Below are positions 1-5,019 of a DNA stretch of 5,019 nt, in pieces. The stretch comes from a virus. Lineage: Duplodnaviria > Heunggongvirae > Uroviricota > Caudoviricetes. The stretch's first letter is position 1; every line of letters begins with the position of its first letter. The notes beneath the pieces are model-generated. The model was not told where the DNA came from and searched no databases. It saw only the letters and a list, made by a program, of their open reading frames with translations. Location: the IMG/VR virus record IMGVR_UViG_2695420600_000010; one strand, 5' to 3'. Both the position numbers and the translations under genes were made by a program.

Positions 1-1
1 G

Positions 2-658
2 CAAAAGTGTAGCGGTATTAAGCGCAGCTATTTAGCTATTGGAGCTACTGATAACGCACTGGGTGAAAACTCCATTGTTCTGGGAGATAACGACACCGGA
101 TTTAGGCAAGATGGAGATGGTATTATTAGCTTCTATTCAAATGGTTCGCGCATCGGACATATTGATGAGTTAGGATTACATCTTTATAAAGATATTGAAT
201 CTAATGGCAGCAATTTTAGATTAAAAAGTAATTACCGCCACCACATTACATTCGCCAACGAAGACGGAAGAATTCGTATGTTTTTGTGGAAAGATAACGG
301 TGGTGATGGTGTTCATATTAATAACGGTTCAGATGGTGGTGGTGATTTCATTTTTAAAACAGATGGGGGATTTGCGCTGGGAAGTGGTGCGCAAGTTGCG
401 TCTAGTGGCGATATTTATGGTTCAGTGTGGGAAAACAACTGGTTAAGCACATGGCTGCATAATCATGTCGTTCGGGATATTCGTCTTGGCAGCATTGAAT
501 ATAAAAACGTATGGCGCGACTACGGCTTTGGCGATGCGTCAGGTTATGTTTTAACAGCCGCAATTAACAGCAATGCGGATGATATTGTCGACACTGTTGC
601 CAGAAGGCCAATTCAGAAATTGATTGGGGGAATATGGTACAACGTGGGGAGTGTTTAA
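2..658 (+). CDS. stf: Phage side tail fibre protein, C-terminal (variable) cassette; 5' end lies upstream of the window
   Basis: Frame 2 is open from position 2 to TAA at 656-658 (the ORF track reports only the Met-initiated part, 278..658). The translation contains ...[14 protein letters not shown]... and ends ...[18 protein letters not shown], paralogous to the minus-strand cassette ([16 protein letters not shown] ... [17 protein letters not shown]). Gly/Asn/Ser-rich composition typical of enterobacterial phage tail-fibre tips; the stop is 1 nt before the tfa start. Confidence 0.8.
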
Positions 659-659
659 G

Positions 660-1187
660 ATGATGCACCTGAAAAATATTAAGGCCGGGAATCCGAAAAC
701 ACCGGAACAATACCAGCTAACTAAAAAAGCGGGCGTGGTATGGCTCTTTTGCGAAGATGGCAAAAACTGGTATGAGGAACAAAAGAATTTTCAGCCAGAC
801 ACCATAAAAATTGCTTACGATGAGAACAACATCATCGTTGCTGTCAGTAAAGACGTTTCAACTATTAATCCTGAAGGGCTAAGCATAGTTGAAGTTCCTG
901 ATATTACGGCAAATCGTCACGCAGACAATAACGGAAAATGGATGTTTCTGGATGGTAAAGTAGTAAAGAGGGAATATACAGAACAGGAACTGCAACAACA
1001 GGCCGAATCACAAAAGGCCGCATTGCTTTCCGAAGCTGAATCAGTCATCCAGCCGCTGGAACGCGCTGTCAGGCTGAATATGGCAACAGACGAGGAACGC
1101 ACACGACTGGAAGCATGGGAACGCTACAGTGTTCTGGTCAGCCGTGTGGATACGGCAAATCCTGAATGGCCACAAAAGCCTGAATAA
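660..1187 (+). CDS. tfa: Tail fibre assembly protein (Tfa chaperone)
   Basis: ORF track 624..1187. Preferred start is ATG ATG at 660/663, preceded by GGGGAG (645-650), because the product then begins [22 protein letters not shown], aligning with the start of the paralogous minus-strand Tfa' ([22 protein letters not shown]). C-terminus ...[20 protein letters not shown] is the conserved Tfa tail also seen in the three tfa remnants downstream. Confidence 0.85.
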
Positions 1188-1192
1188 AAATT

Positions 1193-1212
1193 AAGGCCCG
1201 ATAGCGGGCCTT
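1193..1212. terminator. Candidate bidirectional intrinsic terminator between the convergent tfa genes
   Basis: Perfect 8-bp inverted repeat aaggcccg (1193-1200) / cgggcctt (1205-1212) with a 4-nt loop; A-run 1186-1190 on one side (a U-tract for the minus-strand transcript) and a T/C-rich run on the other. Sits between the stop of tfa (1187) and the stop of tfa' (1216). Confidence 0.45.
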
Positions 1213-1215
1213 CTC

Positions 1216-1749
1216 TCATTCTGGTTGTTCGGGAAACGTTACTGGCAGGCTGGAGGTGTCTGTGGATTCAACCTTCTGCGCATAGAGCATCCACTCGGTT
1301 AATTTTTGTTTATTCTCATCGGAAATGATGCCCAGCTGTAGCTGAGAGTCCCACAGCTGGGTTTTATCCCTGACGAGCTGCAGCAGGCTCTGCTTTTCAT
1401 TTTCCGCTTGTTGCCTTTGCTCTTCCTCGGTATAAGTTCGCTTTATCACCGCACCATCTTTGAACATCCAGTTGCCCGAAATATCAGCCCGGCGATTTGC
1501 TGTAATATCAGGCAACTCAACGACACTTAAACCTTCTGGATTAATTGCTGATACATCCTTGTCTATAGCAATAATTATTCCCTCAACTGTGTAAGCCAGT
1601 TTTATTGTATCCTCCTGAAAGTTTTTTAATTCCTCATGCCAATTTTTTCCATCTTCGGACCATAACCAGATAACATCAAAATTCTTTGTTAGCTGGTATT
1701 GTTCAACGGTTTTTGGATTACCTGCGACAATGTTTTTTAAATGCTGCAT
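1216..1749 (-). CDS. tfa: Tail fibre assembly protein, alternative (inverted-orientation) copy
   Basis: 177-aa ORF on the minus strand, [40 protein letters not shown]..., collinear paralogue of the plus-strand Tfa (shared N-terminus, ...[16 protein letters not shown]..., acidic/Gln-rich C-terminal part). Start ATG at 1747-1749 lies 2 nt after the stop of the stf' reading frame. Confidence 0.85.
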
Positions 1750-1751
1750 GA

Positions 1752-1898
1752 TTATACCTGCGATACGTTATACCATGTTCCGTTAATTAACTTTTGTATT
1801 GGTCTGAATACTGCCGGATCATCACCATCGACTTCACCGATAATACCAAGCCCCGTGATTACATGGCCTGATTTTTCATACATCACGCCTTTCTTCAT
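1752..1898 (-). CDS. C-terminal segment of the silent stf' cassette, separated from the main stf' frame by an in-frame TAG
   Basis: Same frame as the 1902..2513 ORF. Translation [48 protein letters not shown] ends with the same motif as the plus-strand Stf C-terminus ([18 protein letters not shown]). Not in the ORF track, presumably because it is short. Confidence 0.6.
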
Positions 1899-1901
1899 GG
1901 T

Positions 1902-2678
1902 CTAAACAACTCGTGTGCCAAGTCTGACATCTCTCACATAGCGGGAATCAAAGTTACCGTAATCCGAGGGATTAACACGTCCCGTAATATTTATGGTTTT
2001 ATTACTTTGAATGCTTCCGGAGACAAAGCGCATAACATGGACGTTATTAGCATAAACATCCAGATTACCATCGCCTTTTTGTTTAAAGCCCGTGTCATTA
2101 TCACCCAATACAATCGAATTACCGCCAAGAGCACTGGATGTTCCGATACCCAGTGCACCATTCAGTTGACCACCAGATAACGGCAGTGCACCAACATCTC
2201 CTGCTGAAGGTTTTCTGGTGGTGTAAAATTCGGACCAGTCGGCTTCAAAACCATAACCATCACGGGCTGAACGATAAAAAATACCGCCATTTTTATAATT
2301 AATCCGAAACTGAGCTGCAGGACAACTTCCTTCTCCCATATAAAAATGAATAATTAACGTTGATGCACCACTAATAGTTGCGTTATAGGCTCCGCTACTC
2401 CAGTTCCATCCAACTGCTTTATCATTCGCAACGGTGCTTCCTGTTTTCCCTAAGGCAAACGCACCAACATGACTTGCTTTTAATGTGATATCGGAGGAAC
2501 CATCAAAAGCCACATTGCTTATTTTCCTGGCAGTTTTTAATTTTGCAGCTGTAGAAGCATTGCCGGATAGTTCACCAGAAAGGCCACCGCTGAATGTTTG
2601 TCGATTAGTCCAGGTATTCGCTGTACTGAGTAACGGTATTTTCTCCCCGCTTGTGCCGAGTTCTCGTAAACCGAGGTT
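1902..2678 (-). CDS. stf: Silent alternative tail-fibre C-terminal cassette (stf'), no start codon of its own
   Basis: The minus-strand frame is open from the crossover site (a TAA at 2679-2681 on the minus strand closes it inside the site) to TAG at 1902-1904; the ORF track shows only the GTG-initiated part 1902..2513. Translation ...[28 protein letters not shown]...RYVRDVRLG is paralogous to the plus-strand Stf. The arrangement is that of the unexpressed S'v cassette of Mu G / P1 C / e14 P segments. Confidence 0.75.
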   Translation of the reverse strand, partial: NLGLRELGTSGEKIPLLSTANTWTNRQTFSGGLSGELSGNASTAAKLKTARKISNVAFDGSSDITLKASHVGAFALGKTGSTVANDKAVGWNWSSGAYNATISGASTLIIHFYMGEGSCPAAQFRINYKNGGIFYRSARDGYGFEADWSEFYTTRKPSAGDVGALPLSGGQLNGALGIGTSSALGGNSIVLGDNDTGFKQKGDGNLDVYANNVHVMRFVSGSIQSNKTINITGRVNPSDYGNFDSRYVRDVRLGTRVV

Positions 2679-2686
2679 TTAGATAA
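2661..2686. other. Crossover site for a Gin/Pin/Hin/Cin-family serine DNA invertase (gix/hix-like), right boundary of the invertible segment
   Basis: Sequence ttctcgtaaacc-ga-ggttttagataa is two imperfectly inverted 12-bp half-sites around a 2-bp core. It closely matches my recollection of gix (TTCCTGTAAACCGAGGTTTTGGATAA) and hixL (TTCTTGAAAACCAAGGTTTTTGATAA). It lies about 55 bp upstream of the invertase start and exactly where the silent stf' frame opens. Confidence 0.75.
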
Positions 2687-2740
2687 TGGCGGTTTCTGGC
2701 CTGCATGGCATGATTTGTGCTTTTGGACGGGAGATTCAGC

Positions 2741-2974
2741 GTGCTGATTGGCTATGTAAGGGTATCAACAAATGACCAGAATACAGACCTGCAACGAAAC
2801 GCTCTTGTTTGTGCAGGATATGAACAAATATTTGAAGATAAATTAAGCGGAACAAGGACAGGCCGACCTGGATTAAAACGTGCTTTAAAGCGCCTTCAAA
2901 AAGGTGACGCACTGGTTGTCTGAAAACTGGACTGACTGGGTCACTGTATGCGGCATCTTGTCGTGCTGGTGGTG
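2741..2974 (+). pseudogene. pin: Serine DNA invertase (Pin/Gin family), N-terminal catalytic region only; inactivated by two in-frame TGA codons and 3' truncation
   Basis: GTG start at 2741 preceded by GGGAGA (2729-2734). Translation MLIGYVRVSTNDQNTDLQRNALVCAGYEQIFEDKLSGTRTGRPGLKRALKRLQKGDALVV*KLD*LGHCMRHLVVLVVE is near-collinear with the Gin/Pin N-terminus as I recall it (MLIGYVRVSTNDQNTDLQRNALVCAGCEQIFEDKLSGTRTDRPGLKRALKRLQKGDTLVVWKLDRLGRSMKHLISLVGELRE). TGA at 2921-2923 replaces the Trp codon and TGA at 2933-2935 replaces the Arg codon. Invertase homology ends near 2974, where tfa homology begins. The ORF track entry 2717..2923 is this gene with an upstream GTG. Confidence 0.85.
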
Positions 2975-3087
2975 GAAGCCTAGAAAAAGTATCGGGTGTT
3001 GCTGAACCGTGTTGATACATCAACTGCACCTGATATTGAGTGGCCTACGAACCCTGTCAGGGAGTAATCATTGGGATTATGCCGCAG
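2974..3087 (+). repeat. tfa 3'-end remnant, copy A (last ~24 codons of a Tfa plus ~40 bp downstream), fused in frame to the invertase pseudogene
   Basis: 2974-3046 matches 4023-4095 (copy B) with 2 mismatches (59 bp identical at 2988-3046 / 4036-4094). 2989-3087 matches 4874-4972 (copy C) with about 6 mismatches. Encodes ...(A)[27 protein letters not shown], i.e. a Tfa C-terminus. Confidence 0.7.
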
Positions 3088-3115
3088 CACGTCTTAAGCA
3101 AGAACGTGCTGCGGT
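3081..3115. terminator. Stable hairpin at the left border of the methyltransferase cassette; weak terminator candidate
   Basis: 11-bp perfect inverted repeat ccgcagcacgt (3082-3092) / acgtgctgcgg (3104-3114) with an 11-nt loop cttaagcaaga. On the plus strand a T-run (3124-3130) follows only after an 8-9 nt spacer; on the minus strand it lies 8 nt past the methyltransferase stop but has no U-tract. Function is therefore uncertain. Confidence 0.3.
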
Positions 3116-3121
3116 TGGATG

Positions 3122-3790
3122 CTATTTTTTCCCTGAAGCGGAAAACATTACTACAGTACCTTGAACCTTGGTTTTAACATTCTCGAAATGCTCTGAGAGT
3201 ATATGTGTTAAGCCTTCTTCGGAATCTTTTGTGTTTGAAAAGATGCCTTTCTGATTGTAAATGCGCATCAGTTTTTGACCGAAGCTATTGTGCACAACTC
3301 CATCGCCAAGAATTGTGGCTCCGTATAGAGTTCCATCATCAGTTAAGGCCTGCGCCGCATTGCGTATTACACAGCTTTTTGTAGATATATTTCCAGGCAG
3401 GCAGTGAAGAAGGTAAAACATGGAAATGGAATCAAATTGACCATGTAACGCCGCGGGATAAGGTTCAAAAACATCATGGCTAATTTTATGTTTAATTTTT
3501 GATTCCCCAGCCCTTGTAGATGCCGCGTTCAGGCTAGCTTCGTTCAAATCCATTAAAGATATCAGACTACTCTCAGGTACGTGAGTAAGGTAAAACCCAG
3601 TTCCAACACCAATATCCAGATGGTTGTTACCTAAATGTTCCAGAAAGTGTGGAAGAAGGTGTTCCTTTGTAGGACATCCCCATGCAAGCCGATTTGATAC
3701 TCCCAAAACCCACCAGTCATAAAGCTTTAGGGTAAGTGGTGTGTAAATTTTAGCCCCATCATCTGTGTTTGTTTTCATTGATTTCACCAT
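3122..3790 (-). CDS. Class I (Rossmann-fold) SAM-dependent methyltransferase, substrate unknown
   Basis: 222-aa ORF. Contains the glycine-rich SAM-binding motif I (HLDIGVGTGFY), an acidic residue one beta-strand later (SLMDLNEASL), and further Rossmann-type motifs (FDSISMFYLLHC, DDGTLYGATI). I find no (D/N/S)PP(Y/F/W) or PCQ motif, so an N6/N4/C5 DNA methyltransferase is unlikely. An alternative start is the ATG at 3776-3778 (MKTNTDDG...), which has a GGTGA Shine-Dalgarno 5 nt upstream; the first ATG (3788-3790) has none. Confidence 0.8.
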   Translation of the reverse strand: MVKSMKTNTDDGAKIYTPLTLKLYDWWVLGVSNRLAWGCPTKEHLLPHFLEHLGNNHLDIGVGTGFYLTHVPESSLISLMDLNEASLNAASTRAGESKIKHKISHDVFEPYPAALHGQFDSISMFYLLHCLPGNISTKSCVIRNAAQALTDDGTLYGATILGDGVVHNSFGQKLMRIYNQKGIFSNTKDSEEGLTHILSEHFENVKTKVQGTVVMFSASGKK

Positions 3791-3847
3791 GTTATAGTTT
3801 TATTTGTGAATTAAATCAATTATGGCGATGAATTACAAGGGGTTAAA
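3791..3847 (-). promoter_or_regulatory. Candidate sigma70-type promoter(s) for the methyltransferase gene
   Basis: On the minus strand: TTTAAC (plus 3842-3847), 17-bp spacer, CATAAT (plus 3819-3824), about 35 nt upstream of the ATG; or TTGATT (3814-3819), 17 bp, TATAAC (3791-3796), abutting the first ATG. Hexamer matching by eye only. Confidence 0.25.
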
Positions 3848-3882
3848 TGCTGCCGCAGCATAGCGATATTGAAATAGCCTAG

Positions 3883-4116
3883 TATGCTTCGATACAGCAG
3901 GAGCCGAATGGCTGGAAGACCGTCACCACACAGTTCTACATCCAGGAATTCAGTGAGCATATTGCGCCACTTCAGGATGCTGTAGATCTGGAGATCGCAA
4001 CGGAGGAAGAAAACTCGTTGCTGGAAGCCTGGAAGAAGTATCGGGTGTTGCTGAACCGTGTTGATACATCAACTGCACCTGATATTGAGTGGCCGGAAGA
4101 ACCAGACACAATGTAA
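3883..4116 (+). pseudogene. tfa: Tail fibre assembly protein, 3' fragment (copy B): about 77 C-terminal codons, no start or N-terminal half
   Basis: Frame 1 after TAG at 3880-3882 translates [77 protein letters not shown]. This is collinear with the C-terminus of the intact plus-strand Tfa (...[42 protein letters not shown]...). Too short and start-less to appear in the ORF track. Confidence 0.75.
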
Positions 4117-4242
4117 GGCAGTATGACTTTCCGTGAGACAGATGCTGGCCAACGTGGGATATTTAACGCGGGTTAACATCGTTGTCAGAGCCGCATGGGT
4201 GAGCTGTTGCTACACCCCGGTATTTCCACCACGGAGGCCAGC

Positions 4243-4832
4243 ATGAACAACAATAACACATTGTACGTCGGGTTAGATGTTCACAAAGAATCGATTACTG
4301 TCGCTTATGCTATCAATTCAGAACCTGTTGAACTGATGGGTAAAATTGGCACATCACCTACTGATATTCAGAATCTTTGTAAACGTCTCAGGTCAAAGTC
4401 ATCGCAGGTCAGTATCGTTTATGAAGCGGGGCCCTGTGGTTATGGACTTTATCGTCGGCTGGTGAAATCCGGTTTTGACTGCATGGTCTGCGCCCCCTCA
4501 CTTATCCCGAAAAAACCGGGGGAGCGGGTTAAAACCGATCGCCGTGATGCCATCAGACTTGTGCGTTCACTGCGTGCAGGAGATCTTTCTGCTGTCTACG
4601 TACCCGGCATTGAAGATGAGGCATTCCGGGATTTGGCCCGGGCATGGGCATCTGCCCGCGATGATTTACGGCATGCAAGGCAACGTCTGAAATCGTTTCT
4701 TCTGGTTCATGGGGTCCATTATGTCGGGCGAGCAGATTGGGGCCCTGCACACCGACGCTGGCTCAGCAAATACTCATTCGAAAGTCCCTGGCGACAATTA
4801 GCTTTTGACGAACACCGTCGTACAATAGAAGA
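4243..4832 (+). CDS. IS110-family (DEDD) transposase, N-terminal ~196 aa; 3' part lost in the scaffold gap
   Basis: ORF track 4195..4890. Preferred start ATG 4243 with GGAGG (4233-4237) 5 nt upstream. MNNNNTLYVGLDVHKESITVAYA..., ...SIVYEAGPCGYGLYRRL..., ...RVKTDRRDAIRLVRSLRAGDL... reproduce the N-terminal DEDD catalytic-domain signatures of IS110/IS1111-family transposases. The reading frame runs into the N-run at 4833. Confidence 0.85.
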
Positions 4833-4873
4833 NNNNNNNNNNNNNNNNNNNNNNNNNNNNNNNNNNNNNNNNN
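4833..4873. other. Assembly/scaffold gap (41 N)
   Basis: Uninterrupted run of n. The flanks are not continuous: IS110 transposase on the left, tfa remnant on the right. Confidence 0.95.
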
Positions 4874-4971
4874 ATATCGGGTATTGTTGAATCGTGTTGA
4901 TACATCAACTGCACCTGATATTGAGTGGCCTGCAAATCCTGTCAGGGAGTAATCATTGGGATTATGCCGCA
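4874..4971 (+). repeat. tfa 3'-end remnant, copy C, truncated on the left by the gap and on the right by IS1
   Basis: 4874-4972 aligns to 2989-3087 (copy A) with about 6 mismatches, including the downstream non-coding stretch cctgtcagggagtaatcattgggattatgccgcag. Encodes ...IGYC*-frame Tfa tail ...[19 protein letters not shown]. Confidence 0.7.
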
Positions 4972-5019
4972 GGTGATGCTGCCAACTTACTGATTTAGTG
5001 TATGATGGTGTTTTTGAGG
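4972..5019 (+). mobile_element. IS1 left end (IRL and first 48 bp), continuing beyond the window
   Basis: ggtgatgctgccaacttactgatttagtgtatgatggtgtttttgagg matches the IS1 left terminus as I recall it (GGTGATGCTGCCAACTTACTGAT... IRL followed by the insA leader). The element runs off the window, so insA/insB and any target duplication are not visible. Confidence 0.9.

Follow-up and report, generated by a model that had tools for sequence, protein, structure and literature searches.

How does one prophage locus come to show three copies of the 3' end of tfa, the tail-fibre assembly gene? The question is posed by the 5,019-nt stretch of DNA analysed here (the window), which is a draft Shigella sonnei scaffold of a lambdoid prophage next to trpA. 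Its features, with coordinates and strand, are the following.

1-658, plus: 3' part of the expressed tail-fibre variable exon (Sv), with an ORF at 278-658 directly 5' of tfa
660-1187, plus: intact tfa, 175 aa (Pfam Caudo_TAP, 7.9e-37); the exact protein occurs in S. sonnei as a tail fiber assembly protein, the longest contig with it being 5.03 Mb
1216-1749, minus: alternative tfa' of the invertible segment, 177 aa (Caudo_TAP, 4.8e-34)
1752-2513, minus: alternative tail-fibre tip (S'v; gp37_C, 5.8e-08), its ORF split on translation by an in-frame stop at 1899-1901
2661-2690, no strand: right crossover site of the invertible segment, TTCTCGTAAACCGAGGTTTTAGATAA, exactly where closed genomes L008 and L012/L014 exchange
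2741-2965, plus: dead serine invertase (pin) stub of about 75 codons (resolvase N-terminal domain, 4.6e-15), with stops at 2921 and 2933
2966-3087, plus: copy A, the last 33 codons of a tfaD-type tfa (ending EWPTNPVRE, stop 3065-3067) and 20 nt of 3' UTR
3082-3114, no strand: hairpin with an 11-bp stem between the convergent tfa and methyltransferase stops (fold -24.8 kcal/mol)
3122-3790, minus: class I SAM-dependent methyltransferase, 222 aa, ybcY counterpart (Methyltransf_12/23/25)
3883-4116, plus: tfaX-like tfa fragment, 5'-truncated (Caudo_TAP, 1.4e-26)
4113-4832, plus: first 720 nt (5' end) of ISSso6, an IS110-family element of about 1.5 kb in full, 99.5-100% identical to annotated ISSso6 copies
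4833-4873, no strand: run of 41 N in the sequence, a scaffold gap
4874-4972, plus: copy C, the 3' end (ending EWPANPVRE, stop) and 3' UTR of a tfaX-like fragment
4973-5019, plus: IS1 left end, the junction being 100% identical in L008, L012, L014 and L018

The Repeated tfa 3' End

The original prediction placed three tfa 3' ends close to these positions, and they are there: a 38-nt core, CGTGTTGATACATCAACTGCACCTGATATTGAGTGGCC, occurs exactly at 3008, 4057 and 4893 (no match in 200 shuffles, 0 expected by chance). When the window was compared with itself, the repeat family spanned 2990-3087, 4039-4136 and 4875-4972. The similarity between A and B starts near 2966 and ends at 3045/4094, while that between A and C covers 98 nt at 94% and reaches the IS1 end; the left end of C is masked by the N run. 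Copy A continues the reading frame of the pin stub, the two being fused at a GGAA microhomology, and has a TAG at 2981. Copy B (4019-4094) lies inside the tfaX-like fragment and is followed by an allele-specific tail, EEPDTM and stop, at 4095-4116. The 3' end of the intact tfa is a distant relative of the repeat only (about 67% identity to A over 51 nt). The neighbours are also as predicted, A following the dead invertase, B upstream of the IS110-family element and C abutting IS1, and the tail-fibre region is indeed a mosaic with the copies at its module joints.

A repeat conserved perfectly over 38 nt might be read as a functional DNA site, such as a recombinase target or regulatory element, rather than as coding homology, and nothing more specific speaks for that reading. 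However, by Pfam the repeat is an in-frame part of the Caudo_TAP C-terminus, the self-comparison found no inverted-repeat structure within it, and the region has its actual site-specific crossover point elsewhere, at 2661-2690. We consider a functional site barely credible.

A and the Second tfa Fragment Flank a Known Module

Window positions 2970-4093 are 97.1% identical over 1,124 nt to the 3' end of tfaD, ybcY and tfaX in the K-12 prophage DLP12. ORF and Pfam analysis gave the same picture: the convergent methyltransferase has a tfa 3' end to its left and a 5'-truncated tfa fragment to its right, both pointing the same way. Order and orientation are alike in the two prophages, from the EWPTNPVRE tfa end through the hairpin and the convergent SAM methyltransferase to the truncated tfa. 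Three differences set the window apart: its upstream tfa is cut to 33 codons and fused to the pin stub; its methyltransferase ORF is intact, the K-12 ybcY being a pseudogene; and its downstream tfa fragment runs to a complete 3' end, where that of K-12 (tfaX) stops early. A matching layout is annotated in K-12, ST131, ETEC and phage 2G7b, the last being one of the viable lambdoid phages that carry the module. By these alignments the architecture is already known, the window holding the S. sonnei counterpart of DLP12 tfaD-ybcY-tfaX.

The arrangement of pin stub, A, methyltransferase and tfa fragment was found in ST131, ETEC and 10 closed Shigella chromosomes. The stub is 95% identical to a P88/Mu-type invertase up to 2931. 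The pin::tfa joint is old: it is common to the ST131, ETEC and S. sonnei lineages and predates their split.

The hairpin at 3082-3114 bounds the shared module on the left; IS1 (in copy C) and ipaH (in a paralogous module) join within or beside it. A simple terminator scan of 2900-4250 called nothing, the hairpin included. The module, about 1.04 kb (3082-4117), comprises a terminator-like hairpin, a minus-strand methyltransferase together with the DNA upstream of it, and a tfa fragment lacking its 5' part; lambdoid prophages have it immediately after the tail-fibre assembly gene. The resident tfa 3' end and the module's own tfa fragment thus form a direct repeat on the two sides of the methyltransferase. 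In the window the resident tfa was cut to its last 33 codons, copy A, by the old microhomology joint to the truncated invertase. Module contexts seen include a position behind a full tfa, a tfa fragment (in viable phages), a dead invertase and ipaH.

The copies had been taken for footprints of repeated exchange. This stands in part, since recombination between lambda and prophage DNA through stf-tfa homology has been demonstrated experimentally (De Paepe et al. 2014, PMC3945230). It does not hold for A and the fragment behind the methyltransferase as independent local scars; compared with DLP12, these two are the ordinary flanks of one conserved module that is already annotated in K-12.

Boundaries of ISSso6 and IS1

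The divergence of B at 4094/4095 had been proposed as the boundary of the IS110-family insertion. It is not. End alignment places the left end of ISSso6 at 4113-4118, GTAAG (4113-4117) being common to element and target; 8 copies have the left end GTAAGGCAG in common, with identity beginning at 4112/4113. What is more, ETEC and 13 viral contigs carry the B-type tail (4095-4117) free of any IS. On this evidence the tail of B is a native tfa allele and its divergence point an allele boundary.

The element belongs to the DEDD-transposase type, homologues of its transposase carry PF01548, and its left end matches that of other copies. It stops at element nucleotide 720, before the N run, and neither the right end nor the target continuation is present. 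We rejected the idea that a truncated IS ends at 4832: in other assemblies, and in several genomic contexts, the sequence breaks off at 4582, 4687 or 4813, so that 4832 is simply how far this contig extends into a multi-copy IS. Look-ups with partial ISSso6 transposases placed other copies by ubiC, K88 fimbriae and gal; a full-length ISSso6 transposase was not among the homologues listed by the homologue search. For IS1, whose right end is outside the window, the left end at 4973 shows the terminal inverted repeat, and the identical insertion in closed L008 has the 9-bp target duplication, TATGCCGCA.

Closed Relatives and Two Module Haplotypes

In all 10 closed relatives the trp-adjacent locus has two copies only, and the end found there is C-type. 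C takes the position of B in these genomes, and the IS1 junction is identical in three. Copy C is 100% identical to L008 13379-13477 and also to L012, L014 and L018; extended through IS1 (4874-5019), the 100% identity covers L008 13379-13524, corresponding to the place of B in the window. The first 32 nt of the window are unlike all relatives, and the closed relatives align from position 33 on. Against L008 we counted 2 differences in 33-3950 and 13 in 3951-4056.

The SNP tables resolve two haplotypes. At 3168, 3338, 3771, 3780 and 3881, the ipaH-linked module reads T, A, T, A and G with a B-type end at 14 of 14 loci (13 viral contigs and closed L020), while all closed trp-locus copies read C, G, G, G and A or G with a C-type end. 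The window reads T, A, G, G and A with a B-type end, a mosaic of both module copies, and from 3951 on its tfa fragment carries the ipaH-linked haplotype. Among other S. sonnei drafts there are four more mosaics, and left and right flanks occur in all combinations. The window's exact methyltransferase protein was found under the name S. sonnei in 406 contigs, none above 114 kb, and the allele looks like a consensus mosaic in its own right.

We infer the existence in S. sonnei of an ipaH-methyltransferase-tfaB-ISSso6 locus from draft L026, closed L020 (without the IS) and viral contigs. Exact-protein look-ups did not retrieve this locus from a closed S. sonnei chromosome, the cluster representative (P0001) leading to an unrelated context.

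The original prediction named a long-read assembly with only one tfa 3' end here as evidence against it, and closed chromosomes of the same clone largely bear this out: they have two copies, not three, and B with ISSso6 belongs to the ipaH-linked paralogous haplotype. That the three copies are independent remnants of separate exchange and decay events, with B truncated by the IS at 4094/95, is very unlikely. A different element does abut each copy in the sequence as given, and alternative tails after EWP are present at the tfa ends of many proteins. However, the IS begins at 4113-4118 behind a tail that is native without it, A and B/C belong to one conserved module as in DLP12, the A joint was present before ST131, ETEC and S. 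sonnei diverged, and C is the closed genomes' version of B.

Inconsistent Scaffold Joins

B and ISSso6 are linked to C through the 41-N join only, a linkage contradicted by every closed relative examined. It was absent from the 10 closed loci, 5,426 complete E. coli genomes, species-representative genomes, metagenomes and viral contigs, and neither uninterrupted sequence nor a closed genome gave three copies at one locus. The B/ISSso6 junction and the contiguous C/IS1 junction were both missing from the complete E. coli genomes, and neither had a match in species-representative genomes or metagenomes; among viral contigs each junction had one match (L017 and L018).

Two sister scaffolds, L026 and L028, contain the identical 41-N run joined at different points. 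In L026 the B-ISSso6 piece is linked to ipaH on its left, and past the 41 N the C-type fragment begins 80 nt earlier than that of the window. In L028 the order is reversed (A, methyltransferase, C, IS1, 41 N, B fragment). We also rejected the N run as a fixed-size mask over real sequence, since these public scaffolds show 41 N beside different sequences.

The known module architecture, with a third copy that is most likely an assembly product (a repeat-induced scaffold chimera), accounts best for these results. While the sequence comparisons are direct observations, the history of the scaffold is what we infer. S. sonnei would have two module copies. Locus 1, in the trpA-adjacent prophage, would run pin stub, A, methyltransferase, tfa fragment with C-type end, IS1; locus 2 would run ipaH, methyltransferase, tfa fragment with B-type end, ISSso6. 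The copies differ at a handful of sites only and are near-identical over about 870 nt, so that short reads cannot phase them. The contig would have come in from locus 1, followed mostly the locus-2 copy into ISSso6, and then been scaffolded over 41 N to C and IS1, the genuine 3' end of locus 1.

Alternatively, the layout could be real in this sublineage. Homologous exchange or gene conversion between the paralogous modules would then have carried ISSso6 and a B-type end into the prophage next to trpA, and the gap would conceal the remainder of ISSso6 plus further DNA ahead of a C-type end that was retained. A is joined directly to a B-type fragment and ISSso6 in three N-free contigs (the left part of the window, L017 and L029), and ipaH-methyltransferase-C-IS1 in L027 resembles the reciprocal product of a single switch. 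A closed ETEC genome has A, methyltransferase and a B-type end at this locus, showing that the combination is biologically possible and viable, and stf-tfa homology is a proven recombination substrate (PMC3945230). Yet the window haplotype needs at least three switches, the drafts are mutually discordant although the species is clonal, the end at this locus is C-type in 10/10 closed genomes, and the 41-N joins disagree among scaffolds, one being reversed. We judge a real layout unlikely.

The Invertible Tail-Fibre Segment

Upstream of the module, the window resembles the Mu G/gin, P1 C/cin, e14 P/pin and P88-like systems in its two convergent sets of tip and tfa and its 26-bp crossover site. 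The right inverted site is at 2661-2690 and the left one outside the window. Hybrid sites distinguish L012/L014 from L008/L015, with exchange exactly at the site, and both orientations occur among closed genomes. The start of the invertase is 95% identical to those of P88, SfMu and D108. Unlike in the known systems, what is left of pin beside the segment is a dead stub of 75 codons that runs into tfa and contains TGA at 2921 and 2933. Any inversion must be catalysed in trans.

Discussion

De Paepe et al. (2014, PMC3945230) described relaxed homologous recombination of lambda with the stf-tfa regions of the defective prophages Rac and Qin, and found no hotspot in the Rac region. There, as here, blocks of tfa and tail-fibre homology are common to unrelated prophages, which provides a tested mechanism for moving the DNA that they flank; at the repeats of this strain such exchange would be conjectural. 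The methyltransferase module might be homology-flanked cargo that moves among unrelated tail-fibre loci by its tfa-derived arms, and exchange between the two resident copies may truly have made the A-methyltransferase-B-ISSso6...C-IS1 layout in this S. sonnei sublineage; we think this improbable.

On the preferred reading, a repeat-induced chimera, the finding is a caution: an apparent cluster of recombination footprints would be a module already annotated in K-12 plus a mis-phased, two-copy, 1-kb repeat. Such scaffolds would mislead the inference of prophage rearrangements, IS insertion sites and tail-fibre mosaicism. The biology that remains would be ordinary, namely tfa 3' homology common to prophages and accessory genes carried behind tail-fibre genes.

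The Three Copies of the tfa 3' End

A repeat search of the window returned one three-member family (2990-3087, 4039-4136 and 4875-4972), whose 38-nt core is exact at 3008, 4057 and 4893 and found no match in 200 shuffles. All three copies (A, B and C, respectively) are in the reading frame for the C-terminal end of a tail-fibre assembly protein (Caudo_TAP), so the original prediction was right to see three repeats of the tfa 3' end. In-register comparison showed A and B to be similar from ~2966/4015 through 3045/4094 and divergent beyond, while A and C are 94% identical across 98 nt, to 3087/4972, where C meets IS1. The relevant features are as follows.

Left half of the window: invertible tail-fibre segment (tail-fibre tip, tfa, convergent tfa', alternative tip)
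660-1187: tfa, intact, 175 aa
Convergent to tfa: tfa', 177 aa
2661-2690: crossover site
Serine invertase remnant, first ~75 codons
3082-3114: hairpin, 11-bp stem, -24.8 kcal/mol
3122-3790, minus strand, convergent: class I SAM methyltransferase, 222 aa
3883-4116: 5'-truncated tfa fragment, including copy B

The intact tfa carries only a distant version of the repeat end, and none was found in the inverted tfa'. A 201-nt query, consisting of the tfa 3' block (first 75 nt) and ISSso6 (remainder), matched 4,540 of 5,426 complete E. coli genomes (median 2 places, maximum 18). Since ISSso6 occurs in only 50 genomes, the tfa 3' block is a common sequence in E. coli.

The Invertase-tfa Joint and the Invertible Segment

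Copy A comprises the last 33 tfa codons, joined in frame to the invertase at a GGAA microhomology (2966-2970). The invertase stub is 95% identical to the P88, SfMu and D108 invertases to 2931, with homology recognisable to ~2965. The resulting Pin(1-75)::Tfa(33 aa) reading frame (2741-3067) now holds three nonsense codons (TGA 2921, TGA 2933 and TAG 2981); ETEC retains TGG at 2921-2923 and 2981-2983. The same joint is found in ST131, ETEC and all the Shigella loci compared, and is therefore old.

The dead invertase stub is likewise common to ST131 and ETEC. Closed S. sonnei chromosomes carry the segment in both orientations (L008/L015 versus L012/L014, locus positions ~9100 and 12002), with the outer half-sites exchanged exactly at the crossover core (window 2661-2690). 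Both orientations being found although the local invertase is dead implies that inversion would be carried out by an invertase acting in trans. The alternative tip is divided by an in-frame stop (1899-1901, minus strand) into 203-aa and 48-aa ORFs, a split also called in closed genomes. Window 1-32 is wholly unlike all closed relatives and a sister scaffold (L026), which match one another, and may mark either a further mosaic joint in the tail-fibre genes or an assembly join at the window edge.

A Known Methyltransferase Module

Copies A and B had been taken for separate scars of exchange. However, window 2970-4093 is 97.1% identical to the tfaD 3' end-ybcY-tfaX region of K-12 DLP12, whose TfaD ends in EWPTNPVRE and a stop, as does copy A. 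In several E. coli contigs a full-length tfa precedes the module, and in viable lambdoid phages such as 2G7b, ev243 and the PhiR phages the module has the tail-fibre genes on one side and the integrase end on the other. Given this shared layout, A and the downstream tfa fragment are the ordinary direct repeats that flank a single conserved accessory module. Shigella and many E. coli have an intact methyltransferase ORF; its K-12 counterpart, ybcY, is a pseudogene.

The Left Boundary of ISSso6

The insertion sequence in the window is ISSso6. Its left end, GTAAGGCAG, is common to eight independent copies with unrelated flanks (window 4085-4118, L004, L005, L006, L032, L033, L040 and L057), and an uninserted ETEC site reads ...GACACAATGTAAG/CGAAAAAG. 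Together these place the start of the element at 4113-4118, with the tfa stop codon kept, and not at 4094/4095 as had been proposed. Nucleotides 4095-4117 (EEPDTM and stop) occur without any IS in ETEC, closed L020 and 11 viral contigs, and two further viral contigs finish at the stop codon of the same tail. This stretch is thus the native tail of a tfa allele, 4094/4095 being where alternative Tfa tails start after the conserved EWP. GTAAG is common to target and element, so insertion behind tfa preserves the TAA stop. Several left flanks are alike, with GACA..A a few bases ahead of GTAAG, and suggest that target choice may be sequence-guided.

Closed Chromosomes and the 41-N Gap

Proteins identical to the 175-aa Tfa carry the name Shigella sonnei and are encoded on closed chromosomes of 4.8-5.0 Mb, where the prophage has rha/ash and trpA as neighbours in ten loci. 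Compared with L008, the closest closed relative, the window shows 2 differences in 33-3950, 13 in 3951-4056 and no homology past 4094. Window 4874-5019 (C and IS1) is 100% identical to L008 13379-13524, where the fragment immediately after the methyltransferase has its 3' end; in the window B has this slot. Closed genomes therefore have two copies here, A and C. The IS1 junction is the same in L012, L014 and viral contig L018, and L008 shows a 9-bp IS1 duplication, TATGCCGCA.

The single N run of the window (4833-4873) recurs with the same length of 41 in sister scaffolds of the accession series (L026 134-174, L028 73-113), each time with an IS-terminated contig on one side and, on the other, a short tfa fragment from the other paralogue. 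The order in L026 is pin stub (to 2927)-N-ipaH-methyltransferase-B-ISSso6 (to 4832)-41 N-C-type fragment, and this last fragment begins 80 nt before its start in the window; in L028 the order is reversed, A-methyltransferase-C-IS1-41 N-B-type fragment. The constant gap, varying join points and both orders indicate a scaffolding convention and no measurement of adjacency. In several genomic contexts, other assemblies have contigs that stop inside ISSso6 at 4582, 4687 or 4813, so the end at 4832 simply reflects extension into a multi-copy IS.

Two Paralogues and a Mosaic Haplotype

A second module copy lies behind an ipaH gene and begins at the hairpin (3082-3087), the joint ...GGAAACCGT/AGCACG being the same in closed L020 and drafts L026 and L027. 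The ISSso6-bearing form of this copy is known from draft L026; the closed L020 copy is without the IS.

Haplotypes at 3168, 3338, 3771, 3780 and 3881, and tfa end (B-type, EEPDTM tail; C-type, as in closed trp-locus genomes). Short viral contig L052 spans only 3168-3464.
ipaH-linked (13 viral contigs and L020): T, A, T, A, G; B-type
trp-locus (10 closed loci): C, G, G, G, A or G; C-type
Window: T, A, G, G, A; B-type

The window haplotype is a mosaic, and several switches are needed to produce it. Among other S. sonnei drafts the combinations T A T A G B, T G G G G B and T G G G A C are found, as is an ipaH-linked T A G G A C, and their left and right flanks occur in 4 of 4 pairings. In a clonal species, such variety would be expected if each assembly independently resolved the few differences within a collapsed two-copy repeat. 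A real recombinant between the two module copies would also join A to a B-type end, as three N-free contigs do; the combination does occur in ETEC, and recombination through stf-tfa homology has been demonstrated experimentally (PMC3945230). The exact methyltransferase protein of the window is found on 406 contigs, all draft and none >114 kb, which fits a mosaic consensus of two paralogues. We consider a real recombinant improbable, and a known module in a chimeric scaffold probably accounts for the window.

In L020, L026, L027 and L044-L056 the module hairpin directly adjoins a Shigella ipaH effector gene (LRR and NEL domains); the module thus also travels in another prophage, alongside a type III effector. 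The comparisons gave no sign of repeat activity beyond coding homology. The repeat would arise because the right arm of the module derives from tfa and the module itself is situated behind a tfa; through the homology of such arms, RecA or phage recombinases could add, remove or exchange the methyltransferase.
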